The notes beneath the pieces are model-generated. The model ran no database searches and was not told where the DNA came from. It worked only from the letters and a program-made list of their open reading frames with translations. Both the position numbers and the translations under genes were made by a program. A stretch of 13,415 nt of DNA from a virus (taxonomy: Duplodnaviria > Heunggongvirae > Uroviricota > Caudoviricetes): positions 1 through 13,415 of the IMG/VR virus record IMGVR_UViG_2654587746_000003; one strand, 5' to 3'. This document shows positions 1 through 13,415 of this stretch, piece after piece (within the stretch, counting starts at the first letter, position 1; each line of letters starts with the position of its first letter).

Positions 1-290
1 GTGTTGCATTGACAGATTGAATCTACAGTAGCCTTTTTTAATATTTCATTTTCCATTTCAATACGTTGTAGCTTTTTCCTGAGCTCACGGATTTCAATTT
101 GTTCCGGGGTAATGGGGGAGGCTTTTGGTGTTTTTCCCTGCCGCTCATCACGTAATTGTTTCACCCATCGCGTCATTGTGGAAAGGCCGACATCCATAGC
201 GCTGGCTGCATCTGCCACGGTGTAATTCTGGTCAACGACCAGTTGAGCGGATTCGCGTTTAAACTCTGCGCTGAAATTTCTTTTTTTCAT
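1..290 (-). CDS. IS3-family transposase OrfA (helix-turn-helix / leucine-zipper protein), partial; C-terminus lies outside window
   Basis: Reverse-strand translation from ATG (complement of 288-290) gives [88 protein letters not shown]..., which I recognise as the IS911/IS3-group OrfA N-terminus. Not in the ORF track because it runs off the window edge. Confidence 0.8.
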
Positions 291-362
291 TATGGCACCT
301 GTGTTGTTCTGAGGTGAGCATATCACCTCTGTTCAGGTGGCCAAATTCAGTAAACCACTTCA
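1..362 (-). mobile_element. IS3-family (IS911-like) insertion sequence, terminal part only; element continues beyond window start
   Basis: Minus-strand orfA starts at 290. Upstream of it the element ends at 355-362 (CCACTTCA on + strand, i.e. 5'-TGAAGTGG on the IS strand), the TG...CA terminus typical of IS3-family inverted repeats. Exact boundary is +/- a few bp from memory of the IS911 end. Confidence 0.75.
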
Positions 363-676
363 GAGGGAAACGTTCAAAAGCAACCGCCGGGAAAATGAAG
401 GCTGAAGGGCAGAAAAAAGGTTATCCGGACATGAGTCTCGATAAAGCATGCGGTATTTATCACGGCATGCGAATTGAGCTTAAAGAACCAAATGGTAAAG
501 CCCCGACGAAAGAGCAGATCGCCTGGATGCGCAGGCTTAGAGAGGAAGGTTACTACGTCGTTCTTGCGTATGGTGCAGAACAAGCGATAACCGCCATCCT
601 GGAATACATAAGCCTTAAAAAGGGTGAGGCTATTGAGCATGTATTGAACGGCGACAAGTGGTTGTATGCTGCTTAA
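363..676 (+). CDS. VRR-NUC domain nuclease (PD-(D/E)xK fold), apparently 5'-truncated by the IS insertion; possibly a pseudogene
   Basis: Frame continuous with ORF 314..676, but 314-362 is IS terminal repeat, so the GTG at 314 is not a real start. The remaining protein has GYPDM...IELK (PD-ExK core) and a conserved VRR-NUC C-terminal half (PTKEQIAWMRRLREEGYYVVLAYGAEQAI). The usual ~30-40 aa N-terminal segment is missing. First in-frame ATG is 395, with a weak RBS. Confidence 0.6.
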
Positions 677-732
677 AATAATAAATTAATTAGTGCATAT
701 GTGCTCTTTGATATAGCGCACATTAACATCGG

Positions 733-898
733 GAGAATAATCGTGTCATTCAAGGCTAATTATGAATCGCTGGCATCGATCATGCCGCGTAATGAACAGG
801 AAGCAGATGCTGTAGTGGACCCGGTAATCGCTGAAATGAATGCTCGCCTGGAGGCTGAATTTGCAGCTGAGAATGAACATACCACCCAGGGCGACTAG
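733..898 (+). CDS. hypothetical small acidic protein (54 aa)
   Basis: GTG at 733 preceded by GGGAGA (721-726). Frame is that of ORF 701..898. No recognisable domain. Overlaps the next gene by about 26 nt. Confidence 0.3.
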
Positions 899-1502
899 GA
901 CTGTTTTTTGTGTCGGTAGCGGTCCGTCACTCACTCGTGAGGACTGTGCTGCTATAGAAAAAACTGGCTGTTCAATCATCGCGGTTAACAATTCCTGGCA
1001 GATGTTCGATGACATTTATGCCTTATACGCCGGTGATTTGTCATGGTGGAAGCAATACGGATCCACCATACCGGGAGGGAGATTCCGCAAAGTGACAGCC
1101 AACCTGGCGGCGGCGAAATCATTTTCGTTGGAGTACAGGCGATATTGTGGACCGGCGGAAGGGGTAAATAGCGGCGCGCAGGCTATCAGTCTGGCTGCTG
1201 AATCAGGGGCTGAAGTAGTGGTATTAGTCGGCTATGACTGTTCTCTGCAAAACGGCCTTCATTGGCATGGCGCGCACCCTCAAGCCCTACGGAATCCAAC
1301 GCAGGTGTCTATTTCAAAATGGCAACAGCAGTTCCTGGATACCCGCAAAAAACACGCAGATTTACATATTTTGAATGCAAGTAGGAGCAGTGCAATTCAA
1401 TGTTTCCCAAGAATAAATTTAGAGGCAGTGATCGCGTTATTATCGTCGGCAGTGGCCCAAGCGCCGCAAACTTTGTTGCGCCGCGCGGAGTGCCGATTAT
1501 AG
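873..1502 (+). CDS. DUF115 / GT42 (CstII-, Maf-like) Rossmann-fold protein, putative glycosyl- or nucleotidyl-transferase, paralog A
   Basis: N-terminal VFCVGSGPSL (GxGPS loop), IIAVNNSW, then VNSGAQAISLAAESGAEVVVLVGYD. This matches the motif order of CstII-type sialyltransferases and DUF115 proteins (IAGNGPSL ... ITSGVYMCAVAIALGY..YLSGID). Start taken at ATG 873 (MNIPP...); ATG 840 is the alternative. Confidence 0.55.
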   Translation: MNIPPRATRTVFCVGSGPSLTREDCAAIEKTGCSIIAVNNSWQMFDDIYALYAGDLSWWKQYGSTIPGGRFRKVTANLAAAKSFSLEYRRYCGPAEGVNSGAQAISLAAESGAEVVVLVGYDCSLQNGLHWHGAHPQALRNPTQVSISKWQQQFLDTRKKHADLHILNASRSSAIQCFPRINLEAVIALLSSAVAQAPQTLLRRAECRL

Positions 1503-2026
1503 CGGTCAATGGGGCCATCGACTGGCTTAACCGCGCTTCTTATTTTTTCACCCTTGATCCATCGCCAGACAATATGCGGCGCGTTGGTCGTGGCCGCCGT
1601 CGCCGTGGTGTTTGTTATTGCATGGCGCTACCCGATGTTAAAGAACGTGAGGTCAGAGACGGCGTTCTGTGCTTCCGTCGTGTGGCTGAGCGCGGCACGG
1701 AGCCAAAAAATACGAATTCTCCCGAGTGGTGGGCGTGGCGCTGGTCCGCACATTTCGGCCTTTGCGAAGATGAGAATGAAATTGCCAGCGGCAATAGTGC
1801 ATATGGTGCTCTGAACCTGGCTTTCCATATCGGATTCAAACATGTAGCCCTGGTGGGCGTTGACGCTACGCAAGAACCACGCGTTCATTCCGGCGGCACG
1901 CCAAAAAATCTAAGTCACCTGCCTTTGTTATTCCAGTCTGCGCGTGAACAGATTGACGTTGTTTCATGCGGGAAAATGGGAGGTATTCCGCAGATGACTC
2001 TTAAAGAATGGCTGAAGAATACATGA
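1400..2026 (+). CDS. DUF115 / GT42-like Rossmann-fold protein, paralog B
   Basis: [25 protein letters not shown], and [24 protein letters not shown] give the same motif order as paralog A. AGGAG at 1383-1387. Overlaps paralog A by 103 nt out of frame. Stop TGA 2024-2026 overlaps the start of the next gene. Confidence 0.6.
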
Positions 2027-2700
2027 TGGCACCCACAATTTATCACCGTATCGACGGTACCAAATACAGGAATGTCTGGGTTGTTGGTGATCTGCATGGT
2101 TGCTACACCAGACTGATGTCCGAACTCCATCGTGTGGATTTTGACCCGGCGCAGGATTTACTGATATCGGTCGGCGACCTTATCGATCGCGGTACTGAAA
2201 ATGTCGAATGTCTGGAACTATTGCAGATGCCCTGGTTCAGGGCAGTGATGGGGAACCATGAGCGGCTGATGATTGATGCGTTAAGTCCAGATGGCAACGT
2301 GAATAACTGGCTAATGAATGGCGGACAATGGTTCTTCATGCTGGACACTGATCAGGAAATATTAGCCTGGGCGCTGGTGGAGCTGGTAAAGCGTCTGCCC
2401 TATATCATTGAGTTGAACACCGGGCAAGAAACTATCGTTATAGCCCATGCCGACTATCCGGATAATGAATACCAATTCGGTAAGGAGGTACCGCTTTTCA
2501 ACGTTGTCTGGGCGCGCGAGCGTATCAGTGATTCGATGGATGATATTGGTGGCGAAATTTCGGGCGCAGATCGTTTTATCTTTGGTCACACTCCGGTGAA
2601 AAGCCCGAAGACATTCTGGAATCAGCAGTATATCGACACTGGTGCCGTATTTTGCGGAAACCTGACATTGATGAAAGTGAAAGGTGATGGTGCAGCATGA
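2023..2700 (+). CDS. Ser/Thr protein phosphatase, calcineurin-like metallophosphoesterase (lambda PPase / PrpA-PrpB family)
   Basis: Motifs GDLHG, GDLIDRG and GNHE in the canonical order. N-terminus [22 protein letters not shown] aligns with lambda phosphatase as I remember it. Start ATG 2023 or 2026 (ATGATG overlapping the upstream stop). P1 also encodes a phosphatase (ppp), but I cannot confirm orthology. Confidence 0.85.
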
Positions 2701-3398
2701 AGATTGCTTTAGTTTTTCGCTCTGGTGGTGACTATAACGCTTCCGATGTGCAGTGGCTGGTTAATCAACTGCCAAAAGGCTATGAAATTATTTGCCTGAC
2801 AGACCTGAAGCGTTTACATGTACCTGGCGTCAAAGTTGTCCCATTGATCAACCAGTGGCAAAAGTGCCGTGGCTGGTGGGCGAAAATCGAGTTGTTCCGA
2901 CCGGATATAACCGATGATCTGTTCTATCTGGATTTGGACACGGTTATTGCCGGTGATATACGCCCAATCCTAGAGCATCCACCAACCAGCTTCACCATGC
3001 TTAGGGATTTTTACCATCCACAATATCGTGGCAGCGGTGCCCTGTGGATACCAAATAGTGTTAAAGCGCATATCTGGAGTTCATTCTGGCAAGATCCGGA
3101 AGGTTGGATTTCTCGTTGTGTCACTACTGAGTGCTGGGGTGACCAGGGGTTCTTACGAAAGGTTATGGGCGATGATACACCAGCATTTCAGGATCTGTAT
3201 CCAGGATGGTTTGTAAGTTACAAGGCCGATGTTGTGGAACCTGGTTCAAAATATGCGAGCGCGCGTTACTCCAGGGGGAATGGGGCATTACCAAAAGACT
3301 GCCGAATAATCTTTTTCCACGGCAAACCGCGACCTCGCGAAGTGTCAGAGGATTGGCTTCCCCTTATCAGCTCATTTTTTGAGCGAGAATCAGAATAA
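2697..3398 (+). CDS. GT8-like (GT-A fold, DxD) glycosyltransferase, putative
   Basis: ATGA overlap with the phosphatase stop. [29 protein letters not shown] resembles the GT8 signature (K..L...L.....YLDxDxxV.GDI). Later DQGFL and FFHGKPRP resemble the GT8 DQD..N and H.G..KPW motifs. Motif-level only. Confidence 0.5.
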
Positions 3399-3399
3399 T

Positions 3400-3416
3400 A
3401 TTGCTCTAATAATTCC
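3400..3416 (+). promoter_or_regulatory. P1 C1-repressor operator-like site overlapping a sigma70-like promoter
   Basis: ATTGCTCTAATAATTCC matches the remembered C1 operator consensus ATTGCTCTAATAAATTT at 14/17. TTGCTC (3401-3406), 17-bp spacer, TAAAAC (3424-3429) gives promoter-like spacing. Confidence 0.55.
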
Positions 3417-3447
3417 ATATTTTTAAAACGTGATGTACACTCATCAC

Positions 3448-3464
3448 ATTTTTTATTAGAGCAA
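3448..3464 (-). promoter_or_regulatory. second C1-operator-like site, inverted orientation
   Basis: Reverse complement of 3448-3464 is ATTGCTCTAATAAAAAA (14/17 to consensus). Forms a 13-bp inverted repeat with the 3400 site. Lies between the putative start site and the RBS (AAGGTG, 3470-3475) of the 3480 gene. Confidence 0.5.
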
Positions 3465-3479
3465 TCTACAAGGTGCACT

Positions 3480-3698
3480 ATGTGGCCATTCCGACGGAAA
3501 TATCACTACTGGCTGATCGCCTTTGTTACGCCGACCGGCGGTATCAGGCATGTAATCACCAGGTATCGCAACAAGAGACTCACCTTAGCCAGAATTTTAC
3601 AGGCTGCCATAGGTGAGGGACTGGATACAAATCGCGTAGTCCTTCCACCTTCATACTTAGGAAAAATGACCGAAGCACAAGCTAATACGGAACTTTGA
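3480..3698 (+). CDS. hypothetical protein (72 aa)
   Basis: ATG 3480 with AAGGTG RBS. Stop TGA 3696-3698 is 1 nt from ATG 3700 of the next gene (coupling). No recognisable domain. Confidence 0.45.
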   Translation: MWPFRRKYHYWLIAFVTPTGGIRHVITRYRNKRLTLARILQAAIGEGLDTNRVVLPPSYLGKMTEAQANTEL

Positions 3699-3699
3699 A

Positions 3700-4962
3700 A
3701 TGAGCACTTCAGCACAAAACCAATCAATCGAAAATGTATCTATCCCTGACGTCCTGAATGCCGGTATCCCAGCCATTATCCAGAACATCCGGGCCGCGCA
3801 ACGCCGCGTTAGTTGTGATGACCTCACAGCGCGTTTTTTTGATAATGCGGTTCAGTCAGCGGAGATGCTTCACGCACAGCTTATTGATGTTTATAACGCA
3901 GAAGCTGATAGCCATAACTCCCTGGTAGATGCAGCTGAAAATATGCAGTTGGATCTCGGTCTGAAGGGTAAAGAAATTGAAGAGCTTCAGCTACAAATTG
4001 AACATTTGAAACGCCAGCAACAGGACGCGATCGACGATGCGACGCATGACGCCAACCAGCGTGCTGATAATGCCGAACGTATAAGCATTGAGCTGGAAAC
4101 AAAACTCAATGAAATGACCGCGATGGTTGAACTGCGGAACTCACAGATTTCAACGCTAAAATCTCAATATAAAGAGATCATGAAACTTGATCCTTTTAAC
4201 CTTGAGAAACGCTATAACAAAGCTAAAAGCGAGCGACAGGAACTGCGTAAGCAGGTCGCCGACCTTAACCAACAGCTCAAAAAAACTATTAAAGATGCAA
4301 GCGAAGCGCGCGTGGCATTTGCTAATAAAAAAGCAGAGGTTACCGCGCTGGTTAATGAGAATGCCAAATTTGCGACGCTCAAGAAGGAAATGTATGGCAT
4401 TACTGAGCGCCGTTTCCCTGCAAGCAAACTTCATCCGACGTTAGGGCAAATCTCCTTCTTCCCGCGCCTCCTGGCTTATGGGATCTCATCGCCTAAAGAG
4501 TTCAATAACGAGCGTCCTTATATCGTTTCTAAGCTGGACTTTGCTTATCAGTTCTGCTGCGACATGGGCTATGCCATTGATATCCGAATCAACGAATGGT
4601 TGATGCCAAACTTCCAGCCGTTGGCAATTTTCCGCGAGTTCCAGCCGGAAGGTTGGGTAGAGTTCTTCCATGAATTGATCTGTAAAGAGATGGAAAGCCG
4701 CCGCCCGGAATTGGTCCGTCGAGTTGAGTGGGCGCAAGAGGTTATGTTGGCAGATGCAGAGCTGCCGTTCGAACCGGAATTCATTGATGATCTGGCAACT
4801 AAAGGGTTGCATACCCTGTTTGATGTGGTTACCCGCCGTCATGAGCAGTTGGTTGTCGAATTGGGTTTAGAGGAAACTGCGGCAAGAAGACTTCTCGATG
4901 TTTGCTATGCACGTAGCGAGGCATGGGAAAAAGAGAACGGCGGCACTATTTACGTTCGCTGA
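3700..4962 (+). CDS. hypothetical protein (420 aa): N-terminal ~230-aa predicted coiled coil, C-terminal globular domain of unknown function
   Basis: Long ORF. N-terminal half is heptad-like and charged (ELQLQIEHLKRQQQDAIDD...RQELRKQVADLNQQLKK). C-terminal half is aromatic and Cys-containing (ERPYIVSKLDFAYQFCCDMGYAIDIRINEW...). No motif I can assign. Confidence 0.7.
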   Translation: MSTSAQNQSIENVSIPDVLNAGIPAIIQNIRAAQRRVSCDDLTARFFDNAVQSAEMLHAQLIDVYNAEADSHNSLVDAAENMQLDLGLKGKEIEELQLQIEHLKRQQQDAIDDATHDANQRADNAERISIELETKLNEMTAMVELRNSQISTLKSQYKEIMKLDPFNLEKRYNKAKSERQELRKQVADLNQQLKKTIKDASEARVAFANKKAEVTALVNENAKFATLKKEMYGITERRFPASKLHPTLGQISFFPRLLAYGISSPKEFNNERPYIVSKLDFAYQFCCDMGYAIDIRINEWLMPNFQPLAIFREFQPEGWVEFFHELICKEMESRRPELVRRVEWAQEVMLADAELPFEPEFIDDLATKGLHTLFDVVTRRHEQLVVELGLEETAARRLLDVCYARSEAWEKENGGTIYVR

Positions 4963-4981
4963 TAGTTACAGTGTCACTTTT

Positions 4982-5017
4982 AATGCTGGTGGAGTGCTCC
5001 CACCAGCATTTTTTTCG
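4982..5017 (+). terminator. rho-independent terminator
   Basis: AATGCTGGTGGAG (4982-4994), short loop, CTCCCACCAGCATT (4997-5010), then TTTTTTT (5010-5016); 20 nt after the 420-aa stop. Confidence 0.8.
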
Positions 5018-5034
5018 TCCAATGAGGAGGGCAT

Positions 5035-5541
5035 TTGAGTATTTTCAATAAACACGCACACCAGGAACGTCCGTACATCGTCATAGTAGATATTGATGGG
5101 ACGATATCAGAGGCAACGGAAGACAGGCTGCATTTACTTCCACCACCTGGCAAAGGTGCATTAACAGAGCACTGGAACGAGTTTAACCTTGCCTGTGACA
5201 CTGATGCTCCCATCACTCCAGTTATTGATATGGTGCGCCAGTTGTCCGGCATTTACACCCTCTGGTTTGTAACCGGGCGCTGTGAGATAGCCAGGGATAA
5301 AACACGAGCCTGGTTGCGTAAGCACGTAACAAATGGGGCTGAGCCTTTGCTATCTATGCGTCCTGCCACCGATGACAGAAATGACGGTCCAGCAAAGATT
5401 GATCTCCTGAAGAAAATTGGTCTAAGTAAAATTGCGTTCGCGCTGGAAGATAAGATTGAAGTGGCGCGTGTTTTCAGGAGTCACGGCGTACTTACGTTAA
5501 TGGTCAGGGAGTATGAAAACGCGCTTCTCCATCAACAATAA
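5035..5541 (+). CDS. HAD-superfamily phosphatase (DxDGT motif I), nucleotidase / polynucleotide 3'-phosphatase-like
   Basis: TTG 5035 preceded by GAGGAGG (5024-5030). IVIVDIDGTIS is HAD motif I; a later WFVTGR is motif II-like. Exact start uncertain. Confidence 0.65.
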   Translation: MSIFNKHAHQERPYIVIVDIDGTISEATEDRLHLLPPPGKGALTEHWNEFNLACDTDAPITPVIDMVRQLSGIYTLWFVTGRCEIARDKTRAWLRKHVTNGAEPLLSMRPATDDRNDGPAKIDLLKKIGLSKIAFALEDKIEVARVFRSHGVLTLMVREYENALLHQQ

Positions 5542-5571
5542 TTACTCTAATAAATCTTGATTTTTAAAACA
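5541..5571 (+). promoter_or_regulatory. C1-operator-like site plus promoter-like -35/-10
   Basis: ATTACTCTAATAAATCT (5541-5557) is 15/17 to the C1 consensus. TTACTC, 17-bp spacer, TAAAAC (5565-5570) has the same architecture as the 3400 element, including the shared ATTTTTAAAAC. Confidence 0.5.
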
Positions 5572-5639
5572 GAGAAAATGAAAATAAAAACATGCCGCAA
5601 GGCGCGGCATGTATCCAATCAATCTCAGGAGCTGAAAAT

Positions 5640-5726
5640 ATGAACACGGCATTCAAAATCATTATGGCCGCGATCTATTTCTGGCTGTTCTCTATCACTT
5701 TTGGCAGCATTGTCGCGCATGGGTAA
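5640..5726 (+). CDS. small hydrophobic peptide (28 aa, one predicted transmembrane helix), not in ORF track
   Basis: AGGAG (5627-5631), 8-nt spacer, ATG 5640. Translation MNTAFKIIMAAIYFWLFSITFGSIVAHG, stop TAA 5724-5726. Confidence 0.45.
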   Translation: MNTAFKIIMAAIYFWLFSITFGSIVAHG

Positions 5727-5805
5727 GGGGAGTATATTAGCCATTTGGAACCCCACGGTCTCTTGCGGGTTTAATTAAGAACCCGCAAGAAAAATACGAA
5801 TTGGG

Positions 5806-8800
5806 CTATATTTTTCCGCCTACGCCTTTAAACTTCTCAATAAACGAGACGATTTTCTGGAAAACTGCCTGTTTTTTCGTTTTATATTGCGGATTCAACG
5901 GACTAAGTTTTGGTAATGTTTCGTTTAATTCTGTGCCATTTTCGGTGGCGTATTCGCGTTTTAAAGACATGCGAATATAGCGTTTTGCTGCATCTTCATT
6001 GAGATTTTCTTCTTTTATCAATGCTTCTGCTTCACGTTGCTGTTCGCGTTGAGCAAACGTAAAGAATGCCTCAATGATACTGGCTTTGTCTGGTAAATCA
6101 TCCAGGTTCGTTTGCTGAATAAAATCGACCACCAGGCCCTCTTTCGCCCGGTTCCCCAGGCTTGAACGAATTAAGCGTTTGACCTCTTCGATCATTTCGC
6201 CCTTGCCTTTATTTTGTCTGTTGTGTTCGAAAATCAGTCCAAGGATATAATCCAGGTTTATTTCCTGAGACTTCAGCAAATCGACCTCAAAAACTACGTC
6301 ATCCCAGTCAGTGGTTGATTTCTCTTTTTTCTCAGCTTCTTTCTCACGGCGCTGCCAGTCGCGAATATCGTTATAGGCAGAACGATAATCCTGAATCTTG
6401 CGATCAGCAGGGAGACGAATTGTTTGCAATTCAGCGAACTTTTCATTATCCACATAATGTTCTGCTTTGAATTTTTCTACCGCAACAGGATCGCTAAGAT
6501 CGATTTGTTGCAGGGCTTTTAGCGTGGCAAATTCATCATAGTTTTGCAGGATGTTCTCGGCACGCAGGTATTCGCCAAACAGTTTAACGAAGTCTTTCTT
6601 CTCTTTTTCACTTTCAATACTGGTAGGGTCAGGGAACCGTTGTTCCAGTTCTGAAACTACTGTCATGAAGCCGCGTTTAGCTTCACCAGTGGCAGCATCA
6701 GTAAAGCCTTCCATATACTCTGCATAACTCTTTTCTAAAACCACATTTTTGGTATTTTTGTCACCAAACAGCGTTATGGCATCAATGGTTGAGCGTTCCA
6801 GATCCCGGAACGTGACAATATTACCGAAGGTTTTAGTCGCGTCATAAATGCGGTTGGTGCGGGAGAATGCCTGCATCAGGCCGTGAAAACGCAAGTTTTT
6901 ATCGACGAATAGCGTGTTTAATGTTGGAGCATCGAAGCCGGTTAAAAACATCCCCACGACAATTAGCAGATCGATATCCTGATTTTTAACCCGCTGGGCT
7001 AAATCACGATAGTAGTTCTGAAAACCGTTACTGTCGGTGCTAAAGTTAGTTTTAAAATGGCTGTTATATTCACGAATTGCAGCGTCCAGAAACTCTTTAG
7101 CACTGCTGTCCATTGCGCTGGTATCAAAAGTTTCATCGGAAATTTCACCAATGGCATTTTGTTCTTCATTGGCGGCAAAGGAGAAGATTGTCGCAATACG
7201 CAGCGGTTTATAGGTAGCCGATTTATTAGCGGCTTCCTCTTGTAACCGTTTAAACGTCGCGTAATAGGCTTTCGCGGCATCCACGCTGCTCACTGCCAGC
7301 ATGGCATTAAAACCTTTGGAGCCAGGGAAAGTACGGTGGGTTTTCTGGCGGAAGTTATTCAGGATATATTGCGTAATTTCCTGAATACGCATGGGATGAA
7401 GGAACGCCTGCTGATTTTCAGCCGCACTCAGTTTTTTCTCGTCGGTTTCTGTCTCTAAAGACTTAAATTGTGGCCGCACATCGTTATAGTCCACCTTGAA
7501 TTTGAGCACTTTTTCATCACGAATCGCATCGGTAATCACATACGAATGCAATTCACGACCAAATACGCTGGCGGTCGTTTCTGAGCCTAAAGCGTTTTCC
7601 GGGAAAATAGGTGTGCCGGTAAAACCAAACTGATAATAGCGTTTGAATTTCTTCTTCAGGTTTTTCTGCGCTTCTCCAAACTGGCTGCGGTGGCATTCAT
7701 CAAATATAAACACCACTTGCTGATTGTATACAGGCAGATCGCTTTCTGCTTTCATCAGGTTATTGAGTTTCTGAATAGTAGTGACGATAATTTTGTTATC
7801 GTCCTTATCCAGATTTCGTTTAAGACCTGCGGTATTTTCCGAGCCGTTGACGCTGTCTGGCGAAAAACGCTGATATTCCTTCATGGTCTGGTAATCGAGG
7901 TCTTTCCTGTCGACCACAAAGAAGACTTTATCAATAAAGTCCAGCTCTGTTGCCAGACGCGCGGCTTTAAAGCTGGTGAGGGTTTTACCAGAACCGGTAG
8001 TGTGCCAGATATACCCACCGCTTTCCGGTTTTGACCAGTTCTTCGCTGTAAAGGAACTCTTAATTTTCCACAGAATGCGCTCGGTGGCGGCAATCTGGTA
8101 CGGTCGCATTACCAGTAGTGTCTGACTGCTGTCAAAAACGCTGTAGTTCACCAGAACATTAAGCAGAGTATGTTTCTGGAAAAAGGTAGCGGTAAAGTCT
8201 TTGAGGTCTTTAATCAGCGTGTTGTCTGATTTAGCCCAGTTCATGGTGAAGTCAAAACTGTTTTTATCGCGCTTTGTGGTGTTGGCAAAATAACGGGTAT
8301 CAGTGCCGTTGGAAATGACGAACAGCTGCAGATACTTAAACAGGGAATTTTCGCTGTTAAAACTCTCTTTACTGTAACGATGTATCTGGTTGAAAGCCTC
8401 ACGAATCGCCACCCCGCGTTTTTTTAGTTCGATTTGCACCAGCGGTAAACCATTAACCAGGATCGTGACGTCATAACGGTTAGCATGAGAACCCGTCTGT
8501 TCAAACTGCTGGATAATCTGCACCTTATTGCGCATGAGATTCTTTTTATCTATCAAATAGATGTTCTCAAGACGCTCGTCATCAAAAATAAAGTCGCAAA
8601 TATAGTCGATATGGATTTTACGGGTCTTATCCAGAATGCCATCGCTCGGGTTATCCAGATACTGCTCCGTGAAACGCCGCCACTCGCTGTCATTAAACAC
8701 CACACCATTGAGGTTCTGAAGCTGTTCCCGAACATTGGCTAGCATCGCCGACTGTGATTTTACGGATATAAATTCATAGCCCTGATTCCGCAGGTCCTGA

Positions 8801-8922
8801 ATCAGTTCACGTTCCAGGTCCGATTCGCTCTGATAGCTGTCGCCTGTTTGCTCAGCTTTGATGTACTTATCAAGAACGATAAAGTTATTGGATTCAGCAA
8901 TGGTGTGTGTCTGATGAGTCAT
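5806..8922 (-). CDS. hsdR: Type I restriction enzyme R subunit (HsdR), Type IC family size (1038 aa)
   Basis: Walker A GSGKT, DEAD-box-like FDECH, helicase motifs ([12 protein letters not shown]). The 1038-aa length and the partner genes match the EcoR124/EcoprrI (IC) family. RBS AAGGA upstream of ATG. Confidence 0.93.
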
Positions 8923-9043
8923 AGCGCATCCTTTGTGCCGTCTGGCAAGGGCCGGAAGGGAGTTAAGGGCGACTTCCAGCGCGTAAAAAATAGTCTATAT
9001 ACTGACCGGGTGTTAAGGTGGCCCGGTCGGTAGCAATGGTCAA

Positions 9044-10245
<1,202 letters not shown>

Positions 10246-10249
<4 letters not shown>

Positions 10250-11808
10250 GATTGCGCCTTGTCACCTTCAATCTTTGCCACAATTGCATCAATATCTTTA
10301 CGCAACTGGTCGATTTTGCTGACCGTGGTTTTCAGCTCAGCATTCAGCTCAGCAATATCGATAATTTCGCGGTTATCTTTCGCTTCCACATAGCTGCTCA
10401 CCGACAGGTTATAGTCATTAGCAACAACGGCCTCAAACGCGACAGATTTCGCCAGATGAGCAACATTTTCTTTGCTGGCAAATACCTGCATAATCTGGTT
10501 GATATGGGCATCGGTCAGGATATTGTTGTTAGTCTCTTTTTTGAACAGTTCGCTGGCGTCAATAAACTGAACTTTGGTATCCGTTTTATGTTTAGACAGC
10601 ACCAGAATATTTACGGCAATGGTGGTGCCAAAGAACAGGTTCGGTGCGAGTGAAATCACGGTTTCGACATAGTTATTGTCGACCAGATACTGACGGATTT
10701 TCTGCTCTGCGCCGCCACGGTAAAAAATACCCGGGAAGCAGACAATCGCAGCACGACCTTTGGCCGAAAGATAGTTCAGCGCATGTAGTACAAACGCAAA
10801 GTCAGCTTTGGATTTGGGGGCCAGAACGCCAGCCGGGGCAAAACGTTCATCGTTAATCAGCGTCGGGTCATCGCTGCCAATCCATTTCACCGAATACGGT
10901 GGATTAGATACGATGGCGTCAAACGGTTTTTCATCTCTGAAGTGCGGCTCAGTCAGTGTATTACCCAGCTTGATATCAAACTTGTCGTAGTTGATATTGT
11001 GCAAAAACATGTTCATACGCGCCAGGTTATAGGTCGTATGGTTGATTTCCTGACCGAAAAAGCCTTCTTCGATGATGTGGTTATCAAACTGTTTTTTCGC
11101 CTGCAACAACAGTGAGCCGGAACCCGCTGCCGGGTCGTAGATTTTGTTAACGCTGGTCTGCCCGTGCATAGCCAGTTGTGCAATCAGCTTGGAGACGTGC
11201 TGCGGTGTAAAGAACTCACCGCCTGACTTACCGGCATTTGCGGCATAGTTAGAAATCAGGAACTCATAGGCATCACCGAACAGGTCAATCTGATGTTCGT
11301 TGAAGTCACCAAGTTTTAACCCTTCAACCCCTTTCAGAACCGCTGCCAGGCGGGCATTTTTATCTTTAACGGTGTTACCCAGGCGGTTACTGGTGGTATC
11401 GAAATCAGCAAACAAACCTTTGATGTCAGCTTCTGAAGGGTAACCGTAAGCAGAACTTTCGATAGCAACGAAGATGCTGTTTAAATCTGCATTCAGTCTG
11501 TCATTGGTCTTTGCTTTCGCAGCTACGTTGCAGAAAAGCTGGCTTGGGTAGATGAAGTAGCCTTTGGTTTTGATGGCATCGTCTTTAATGTCATCAGTAA
11601 TTACGCTGTCATCCAGTTTCGCATAACAGATACTGTCATCACCGGCTTCAATATAGCTGGAAAAATTTTCGCTGATAAAACGGTAGAAAAGTGCGCCCAG
11701 AACGTATTGCTTAAAATCCCATCCATCGACCGAACCTCTGACATCGTTGGCAATTTGCCAGATTTGACGATGAAGCTCTGCACGTTGTTGAATACTTGTC
11801 ATTTTCAT
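10246..11808 (-). CDS. hsdM: Type I DNA methyltransferase M subunit (HsdM), N6-adenine, 520 aa
   Basis: AdoMet motif [11 protein letters not shown] and catalytic motif IV NPPY. Length fits Type IC HsdM. A possible promoter -10 TAGAAT (complement of 11843-11848) lies upstream. Confidence 0.93.
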
Positions 11809-11939
11809 CCACTTATTTCAGGCTTATGTAATTGGCGGTGATTCTACAGCAACTTGGATGCTTTAGCAGTTCGGACATTAGGCTACGAATGACCTGCCTA
11901 GAGGTTTGTTAAGCCGCAAAGTGCTGGTGCTTTATGCCT

Positions 11940-11984
11940 GTGAAGTTTATAATTGTGTACACATAACGAGTACACGAGGTGTTT
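11940..11984 (+). promoter_or_regulatory. phd-doc promoter/operator region
   Basis: TATAAT at 11948-11953, followed by palindromic GTGTACAC (11955-11962) and GAGTACAC (11968-11975), consistent with the Phd/Doc autoregulatory operator of P1. RBS GAGGTG before ATG 11985. Confidence 0.55.
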
Positions 11985-12206
11985 ATGCAATCCATTAACT
12001 TCCGTACCGCGCGTGGCAACCTTTCTGAAGTGCTCAACAATGTTGAAGCCGGGGAAGAGGTTGAAATCACCCGCAGAGGCCGTGAGCCAGCAGTAATTGT
12101 CAGCAAGGCTACTTTCGAAGCCTACAAAAAAGCGGCGCTGGATGCTGAATTTGCATCCCTGTTTGACACCCTGGACTCCACCAACAAGGAACTGGTTAAC
12201 CGATAA
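11985..12206 (+). CDS. phd: antitoxin Phd (prevent host death), Phd/YefM family
   Basis: [73 protein letters not shown], recognised as P1 Phd. Stop TAA shares its last A with the doc ATG (TAATG). Confidence 0.92.
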
Positions 12207-12586
12207 TGAGGCATATATCACCGGAAGAACTTATTGCGCTTCATGATGCGAATATAAACCGCTACGGCGGCCTGCCGGGCATGTCAGATCCGGGTAGGGC
12301 AGAGGCCATTATCGGGAGAGTTCAGGCCAGAGTTGCCTACGAAGAGATCACCGACCTTTTCGAAGTCTCCGCCACCTACCTGGTGGCTACAGCGAGAGGG
12401 CATATATTCAATGATGCCAATAAGCGTACCGCGCTAAACAGTGCGCTGTTATTTCTACGCCGTAACGGGGTGCAGGTATTTGATTCACCTGAACTGGCAG
12501 ACCTTACCGTAGGAGCTGCGACCGGAGAGATATCTGTATCTTCTGTCGCCGACACGTTACGTAGATTGTATGGTTCTGCGGAGTAG
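12206..12586 (+). CDS. doc: toxin Doc (death on curing), Fic/Doc-family kinase
   Basis: 126 aa, [22 protein letters not shown]...[11 protein letters not shown] (Fic/Doc core motif). Position and overlap with phd as in P1. Confidence 0.92.
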
Positions 12587-12590
12587 ATTA

Positions 12591-12770
12591 ATGGCACGTA
12601 AATACAACAAATTGTCCCGTGAAGCGTTAAAGATGCTTCTTGATGGTGTGAGCCGCAGCGAGGTAAAGCAATACCTGGTTGGTAAGCAAATTGGTGCCAG
12701 GACCGCTATTGCTGTGTTATGCCGTCAGGAAATGGTTGTGCTTAAACAGAGAATGCCGGGCAGCAGATAA
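12591..12770 (+). CDS. small basic protein (59 aa) in the position of P1 pdcB (post-doc)
   Basis: ATG 12591 with GGAG 8 nt upstream, immediately after doc. Identity inferred from synteny only. Confidence 0.45.
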   Translation: MARKYNKLSREALKMLLDGVSRSEVKQYLVGKQIGARTAIAVLCRQEMVVLKQRMPGSR

Positions 12771-12797
12771 AGCCCAATCAGTGATGAAAGGTGTGAT

Positions 12798-13331
12798 GTG
12801 AAAGCCGTAATTACTCCCTTTGTACAAAAAGAGCTTGGCGTCGCCACATTCAAAGTGGATCAGGAAGTCAGAAAGCTGGTGGAGGCTGGCCGTAAATTTA
12901 TTATGGAGCCGGTGCCGCGTGAGTTAATCGAGCACATGGACGACGGCCTCGTTGTTTCCGAGCAAACTATGGCAACAAATGAGGCGTTGCAGCCGTTTTT
13001 TAACAGCGATGAACTGTTTCGCCGTATTGGTGGAATTGACGCGCTGGTGGCGTGGTTGCGCAGGAAAGAGGGGCAATGCCAGGCCGCAGATCGTAGCTGG
13101 TGTGACAACCATATTGTCCACGCAGAACGAGACAATAGCGCGGTGTTGTTGTGCTGGCATCACGATAACCATTACCGGATGCGTGGTTTTAATGAGCTGA
13201 AAGAAACGCTGCATAATAATCGCGTTAACTGGATACTGGATGTCGCCCGTCAGGAAATGGGGCTTTCAGATGGCCATGATCTAAGGAAGGTGCGAATAAG
13301 CAGGTCATTTCTTCCCAAGTTGACTCGCTGA
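12798..13331 (+). CDS. Cys/His-rich protein (177 aa) in the position of P1 lpa (late promoter activator); putative zinc-binding regulator
   Basis: GTG 12798 with AAAGG RBS. Contains CDNHIVHAE...LLCWHHDNH. Assignment is by gene order phd-doc-pdcB-lpa, not sequence recall. Confidence 0.5.
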
Positions 13332-13382
13332 TTAAAATTTCGCGGATCTGGGCCGATTTTTTTCCCGCAAACACATCGAATC

Positions 13383-13405
13383 AGCCTATTTAGGCTATTT
13401 TTTCC
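13383..13405 (+). terminator. weak hairpin plus T-tract, possible terminator
   Basis: AGCCTA-TT-TAGGCT followed by ATTTTTT. Stem is short, so low confidence. Confidence 0.25.
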
Positions 13406-13415
13406 ACCATTTCTG

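Follow-up and report, generated by a model that had tools for sequence, protein, structure and literature searches.

The closest described counterparts of the element considered here are found in phages P1 and P7. Two sites in the P1 record (AF234172 / NC_005856), OpmgRa and OpmgRb (formerly Op86a and Op86b), are annotated as monovalent C1-controlled operators controlling the expression of pmgR and pmgS, and are accompanied by a predicted sigma-70 promoter, PpmgR; in the P7 record (AF503408) the two sites go by the names Op(sht a) and Op(sht b). The operator pair has been present in these genome records since the early 2000s. Unlike the notes on Op21, Op68, Op82, Op88 and Op94, the GenBank note on Op86 cites no earlier experimental record, and nothing relevant emerged from a full-text search for Op86 and other old operator names in literature other than the P1 genome paper. 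Two inverted, asymmetric C1 sites are likewise present at a single promoter in the bivalent P1 operators Obanab (Op72ab) and Oc1ab (Op99ab), in which, as in PpmgR, the -35 element is formed by the operator TTGCTC. However, the 17-mers of these bivalent operators overlap by 6 bp to make a 28-bp unit, whereas those of the pair discussed here are 32 bp apart, with a hairpin and the core of the promoter in the intervening DNA, and are individually annotated as monovalent.

The window that we analysed (the whole stretch of 13,415 nucleotides, positions 1 to 13,415 of IMG/VR record IMGVR_UViG_2654587746_000003) shows, over positions 2700-5000, 99% identity to P1 and P7, and equally to many P1-like phage-plasmids. 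This bears out the P1-like origin that had been suggested from the letters alone, and, judged by its sequence, the window is part of a P1-type phage-plasmid. When the window ORFs were transferred to P1 gene coordinates by means of an offset of 78,752, pmgO, pmgP, ppp and pmgQ (ending at 3398) were placed upstream of the operators. Downstream are the first and second genes of the controlled unit, pmgR (3480-3698, + strand, 72 aa) and pmgS (3700-4962, + strand, 420 aa), both recognized from their ORFs and the P1 annotation, followed by pap (5035-5541), mapped by the same offset. Direct reading of the sequence reveals a Shine-Dalgarno-like AAGGTG (3470-3475, + strand) 4 nt 5' of the pmgR ATG. Directly 3' of pmgS, a terminator scan and the sequence itself point to a strong intrinsic-terminator-like hairpin (4982-5015, + strand; an 11-bp stem with 6 G-C pairs, and a T-run), which bounds the pmgR-pmgS two-gene unit; the P1 GenBank listing has no terminator feature at the matching site. 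In P1, c1 itself lies about 11 kb beyond pap, and outside the 13.4-kb window. Comparisons with Pfam gave no match for PmgR or PmgQ, and for PmgS no family above the cut-off, only a sub-threshold match of coiled-coil type.

After about position 5730 the window departs from P1, with a minus-strand type I hsdR/S/M system, P1 sequence being resumed at phd/doc. This restriction-modification system (5806-11808, - strand) comprises ORFs of 1038, 401 and 520 aa, which are hsdR/S/M by annotation in matching plasmids, and stands in place of the P1 pmgT-humD segment, between Op88 and phd/doc. The insert is flanked by 5541-5800 and approximately 11900-12600, and the P1 record notes that these flanks match sequence beside the EcoDXXI and R124 hsd loci. 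Two more G+C-rich inverted repeats were seen between Op88 and the hsdR end: one, at 5590-5612, resembles a terminator on the minus strand; the other, at 5761-5790 (TCTTGCGGGTT / AACCCGCAAGA), is at the junction with the hsd insert.

Both 17-mers of the window are base-for-base the P1 operators, in the same place between pmgQ and pmgR. OpmgRa (ATTGCTCTAATAATTCC, + strand) occupies 3400-3416 and is identical to the P1 feature at 82152-82168, while OpmgRb (ATTGCTCTAATAAAAAA, - strand) occupies 3449-3465 and is identical to the feature at 82201-82217; the original prediction had the left arm exactly right and the right arm one base off, at 3448-3464. The arms are inverted and face each other, 49 bp from centre to centre, and this spacing and orientation, like the 17-mers themselves and the flanking pmgQ and pmgR-pmgS genes, are shared with the P1 and P7 pairs. 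A single difference from the P1 pair lies inside the element, a G to A change at window position 3448, between the hairpin and the T-run. As had been claimed, each arm agrees at 14 of 17 positions (three mismatches apiece) with the C1 operator consensus ATTGCTCTAATAAATTT, which is available in print (PMC8546580). At this tolerance of up to three mismatches the window contains three matches to ATTGCTCTAATAAATTT (0.10 expected); in 200 shuffles, three were never reached. The 13-nt inverted repeat formed by the arms proved to be perfect (3400-3412 / 3453-3465) and is the only one of its kind in the window, any such repeat being found in just four of 500 dinucleotide shuffles. In their 3' thirds the two 17-mers are off consensus (TTCC and AAAA vs ATTT), and the A-run of Op86b on the minus strand is the T-run found 3' of the hairpin on the plus strand. 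From the identity of its sequence, then, the element is the already-known P1 operator pair Op86a/b with the pmgR-pmgS promoter: a re-discovery, not a new element.

A weight matrix was built from 18 annotated monovalent C1 operators of P1 (20 were extracted, and Op86a/b were left out), the strand of Omat having been corrected beforehand. Op86a scored 21.0 bits and Op86b 19.4 bits, whereas in 300 shuffles of the window the best site averaged 10.8 bits and never exceeded 18.97, so the resemblance to C1 operators held up to this check. Exactly four sites in the window exceed 19 bits, and all are at annotated P1 operator positions; they include Op83/Oppp (683-699, - strand, 19.9 bits) and Op88/OpmgT (5541-5557, + strand, 22.9 bits), each differing from P1 by one base (TATGCAC... 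vs CATGCAC... and ATTACTC... vs ATTGCTC..., respectively). The next-best site in the window that is not an operator scores 10.5 bits.

Some details of the P1 record itself came to light at the same time. The feature for Omat (AF234172, 2628-2645) is given a length of 18 nt and placed on the wrong strand, the operator being CATGCACTAATAAATAT on the plus strand. AF234172 also contains two unannotated sites, one just upstream of c8 (ATTGCTATAATTATTTG, 18.0 bits) and one inside darB (16.4 bits), the positions listed for them being 1485-1501 and 17166-17182.

The pair is strongly conserved. Among 83 close relatives there were no variants at 3400-3414 and one singleton in Op86b, the substitutions clustering just beyond the arms, at 3385-3399 and 3466-3471. 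Searches for the locus based on PmgS yielded only relatives at least 98% identical among viral contigs and, from the genome collection, two loci that were nearly identical. More diverged lineages, namely Cronobacter phage JK004 and a Salmonella phage-plasmid group, were obtained by blastn and tblastn against phages and plasmids: here the flanks are only about 70% identical, yet the two arms remain, 49 bp apart from centre to centre, with their cores unchanged and position 1 of arm b being A, G or T. Since the C1 protein of JK004 is 76% identical and about 18 sites in JK004 fit the same matrix, the C1 regulon is common to P1 and JK004. A still more distant P1-like element, the Pantoea sp. CCBC3-3-1 plasmid (NZ_CP034366), has a C1 only 28% identical and no P1-type operators. 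It carries instead a 15-mer, AAGATACTAAAATAT, with 13 copies at up to three mismatches (2.5 expected), mostly intergenic, which has the look of an operator belonging to another immunity type. Two copies of this 15-mer form a perfect inverted pair at 60293-60340 of NZ_CP034366, upstream of a small ORF and a pmgS-like gene that together resemble pmgR and pmgS; therefore the paired layout appears to have outlived a change of operator sequence.

How are the two genes expressed? In RNA-seq of P1vir infections of wild-type cells (PMC8201110, Table S1; values are log fold changes), pmgQ stood at 7.05 at 10 min and 11.66 at 30 min, pmgR at 9.02 and 10.81, pmgS at 9.99 and 11.70, and pap at 8.45 and 11.23. 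At 10 min, late structural genes had values of 3-5, and early genes known to be C1-controlled values of about 7-10 (ref, kilA, dmt and ant1 being at 8.3-10.0) (PMC8201110). In a dksA host, pmgQ was at 6.23 at 10 min, followed by pmgR at 9.00 and pmgS at 9.09 (PMC8201110). A second data set (bioRxiv 10.64898/2025.12.28.696737), the columns of whose table we assigned from the arithmetic of the listed differences, gives 5.94, 7.96 and 8.21 for pmgQ, pmgR and pmgS at 10 min. The two published P1vir data sets agree in a 4- to 8-fold rise from pmgQ to pmgR at 10 min, and place pmgR and pmgS in the early class, in keeping with the proposal that they are switched on at infection. Such a step would be expected if an independent early promoter lay between pmgQ and pmgR; the step alone is no proof of C1 control, since P1vir is constitutively derepressed. 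Across the terminator-like hairpin at 4982-5015 there is a fall at 10 min, from 9.99 for pmgS to 8.45 for pap.

Taken with the operator identity, the matrix scores, the conservation and the covariation of the intervening stem (see below), this step in early expression makes it very probable that Op86a and Op86b, with the promoter of pmgR-pmgS, form a switch through which C1 represses the two genes and permits their early transcription once it is inactive. The occupancy of the sites by C1, the precise start of transcription and the activity of terminators we infer. In the plasmid prophage, C1 would bind the asymmetric 17-bp sites as two separate units. C1 is aided in repression by the co-repressor Lxc. 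The two facing sites would enclose the whole promoter core and the transcription start, so that RNA polymerase would be shut out. When C1 is inactivated (through Coi or Ant), whether on induction or in an infection before it builds up, the host sigma-70 polymerase would transcribe pmgR and pmgS early, and the transcript would end at the strong terminator at 4982-5015.

Which sequences constitute the promoter is less straightforward. The -35/-10 pair with 17-bp spacing that had been noticed overlapping the first operator coincides with the PpmgR of GenBank (3401-3429, + strand, annotated in AF234172), made up of TTGCTC at 3401-3406 and TAAAAC at 3424-3429. It agrees with the consensus at 7 of 12 positions, the -10 being without its final T, and was not called in a consensus promoter scan; moreover, its -10 is not conserved in JK004, which has TGAAGC there. 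An alternative sigma-70 candidate that we propose (3413-3441, + strand) pairs TTCCAT (3413-3418) with TACACT (3436-3441), again with 17-bp spacing; its -10 is the loop of the hairpin, and its predicted start is near 3448. Either candidate is bracketed by the two sites, as had been supposed. On a rough matrix of textbook frequencies, the numbers from which are indicative only, the alternative scores 6.5, 9.8 and 8.5 in P1, JK004 and Salmonella, and PpmgR 5.4, -2.1 and 5.4; both are weak (5-10 of about 18 bits).

It is accordingly quite conceivable, if rather short of probable, that the same operators serve a different promoter from the annotated one, the true -10 being the loop hexamer and transcription starting near 3448. 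The -35 would then overlap the 3' end of Op86a, with Op86a extending from about -49 to -33 and Op86b from +2 to +18. This candidate has the top score in P1, JK004 and Salmonella on the rough matrix, where PpmgR scores lower and loses its -10 in JK004; the loop hexamer, which reads TACACT in P1 and in the window and TATCAT in both JK004 and Salmonella, has an A (position 2) and a T (position 6) common to all lineages; and the base 7 nt downstream of it is a purine (G in P1, A in the window). Set against this, the scoring matrix is approximate and all the scores are low, the available -35 (TTCCAT) is poor, and in the window the score of 6.5 falls just below the 6.7 of a candidate created by the private A at 3448. 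Furthermore, several other annotated C1-controlled promoters of P1 (P1ban, P2pmgT) have their -35 on the operator TTGCTC, as PpmgR does.

Two other kinds of promoter were considered for the region and rejected. A candidate minus-strand promoter served by Op86b, which would be directed antisense into pmgQ, lacks conservation: its score is 10.2 in JK004 and Salmonella and drops to 6.7 in P1 and in the window. For an Lpa-dependent late promoter, we used a model consisting of a 9-bp -22 box (AAGTGACTT-like), 4 bp and a -10, trained on ten annotated promoters. Nine of these ten scored 18.9-22.1 bits (the tenth, LPpmgL, 10.6), and the best score in 3380-3480 was 2.2 bits.

Returning to C1 control by the facing operators, we consider the hairpin that lies between them. 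The predicted GTGATG-TACACT-CATCAC is indeed present, at 3430-3447, with an A between it and the run of TTTTTT (3449-3454). In its full conserved form the stem-loop with T-run extends over 3428-3454 (+ strand), with stem arms at 3428-3435 and 3442-3449, the loop at 3436-3441 and T6 at 3449-3454. The stem sequences are ACGTGATG / CATCACGT in P1 (8 bp), ACATGGTG / CACCATGT in Salmonella and GCATGGTG / CGCCATGT in JK004. The A at 3448 is private to the window among 83 sequences, P1 and 81 other relatives having G, and may be either a genuine mutation or an error of sequencing. It breaks the C3429-G3448 pair and makes the fold less stable, at -7.6 kcal/mol in the window as against -13.0 kcal/mol in P1; JK004 and Salmonella are both at -13.6 kcal/mol, and no shuffle folds as well. 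It may be added that 3448A would be the +1 base of the alternative promoter.

When the stems of the three lineages are aligned, 97.9% of cells are paired, compared with 20-62% in slid controls. Two pairs have undergone compensatory change (G-C to A-T and A-T to G-C), and two have become G.U, which pairs only in plus-strand RNA, this covariation being evident in three lineages only. Because the minus-strand version of the JK004 stem-loop is so much weaker (only -5.8 kcal/mol), it is the plus-strand RNA that is under constraint. A scan called the feature at 3428-3454 terminator-like, and it combines, on the transcribed strand, the stem-loop and U-run of an intrinsic terminator with a stem that the covariation indicates to be maintained by selection. 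Neither the GenBank record of P1, which has no terminator feature at this hairpin, nor an Rfam scan of 3250-3750, in which no family was found at E<=1, includes it.

Like intrinsic terminators such as that at 4982-5015, then, the inter-operator hairpin stands at an operon's end and consists, on the coding strand, of a stem-loop with a T-run after it. Its stem is weaker, having 6-8 bp and 3-4 G-C pairs as against 11 bp and 6 G-C pairs, which makes it poor by the usual standards for a terminator; and unlike the hairpin at 4982-5015 it is nested between two operators, with a T-run that doubles as operator sequence. Strong termination is not evident in the gene-level RNA-seq data, which do not distinguish read-through from initiation at the local promoter, at 30 min, when pmgS (11.70) is as high as pmgQ (11.66). 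The hairpin probably serves the upstream operon as a weak terminator, most likely attenuating transcripts from pmgL-pmgQ, while those from the local promoter would escape it because their start falls inside or after it. The coincidence of its U-run with the A-run of Op86b may also explain why Op86b deviates from consensus. Going further, we tentatively suggest that the hairpin has been selected as a dual-coded insulator or weak terminator, with its U-run in Op86b and its loop acting as a -10, and that the paired layout is ancestral. Local transcripts would on this suggestion escape termination because their start lies past the 5' arm, and the paired inverted operators would be considered ancestral because they were kept despite the full change of operator sequence in the Pantoea plasmid.

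Might the dyad instead act mainly as RNA? The whole 66 bp could in principle form one long hairpin on read-through from pmgQ, with an outer 13-bp stem made by the operator arms and an inner stem, serving as a terminator, processing site or stabilizer, the likeness to C1 operators being secondary. The compensatory changes in the inner stem would suit this idea, as would the folding of a 74-nt transcript (-21.1 kcal/mol in the window and -26.9 kcal/mol in P1, with z-scores of -8.5 to -10), but an inverted pair of operators is self-complementary by construction, whatever its role, and the outer arms, being invariant, are without compensatory variation. Both of them bear precisely the C1 core that about 20 other sites in P1 have, the Pantoea relative puts its own operator sequence at the same place, and the U-run right after the inner stem would terminate transcription before the outer 3' arm is made; we therefore regard a mainly RNA-level role as distinctly unlikely. 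The most sceptical possibility, that the 17-mers are chance matches in AT-rich DNA that bind no repressor, draws on their deviation from consensus in the 3' thirds and on the occasional shuffle of 3380-3480 that reaches 20 bits (maximum 20.4 in 3000), but can hardly be entertained, given that the 99.9th percentile of those shuffles is only 17.3 bits, that the two sites lie 49 bp apart exactly where P1 and P7 annotate operators, that their cores are invariant in 83 relatives and kept where the flanks are only about 70% identical, and that known operators such as Olpa (15.6 bits) and Oref (19.2 bits) score no better in a leave-one-out analysis in which most of them give 15.6-27.3 bits.

The original prediction had thus picked out a genuine regulatory element from raw sequence. 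Beyond the GenBank annotation, little is added to our knowledge: that the hairpin covaries, that it overlaps both Op86b and a -10 candidate, and that the paired layout persists in the Pantoea relative; the nested arrangement of terminator, promoter and operator is a compact case of overlapping signals. As to the genes under control, pmgS is listed as non-essential (PMC10695390), and pmgR is essential, its deletion giving unjoined heads and tails (PMC9024508). pmgR is thus a gene for completing heads or head-tail joining that is nevertheless expressed early and is under predicted direct control by the repressor.
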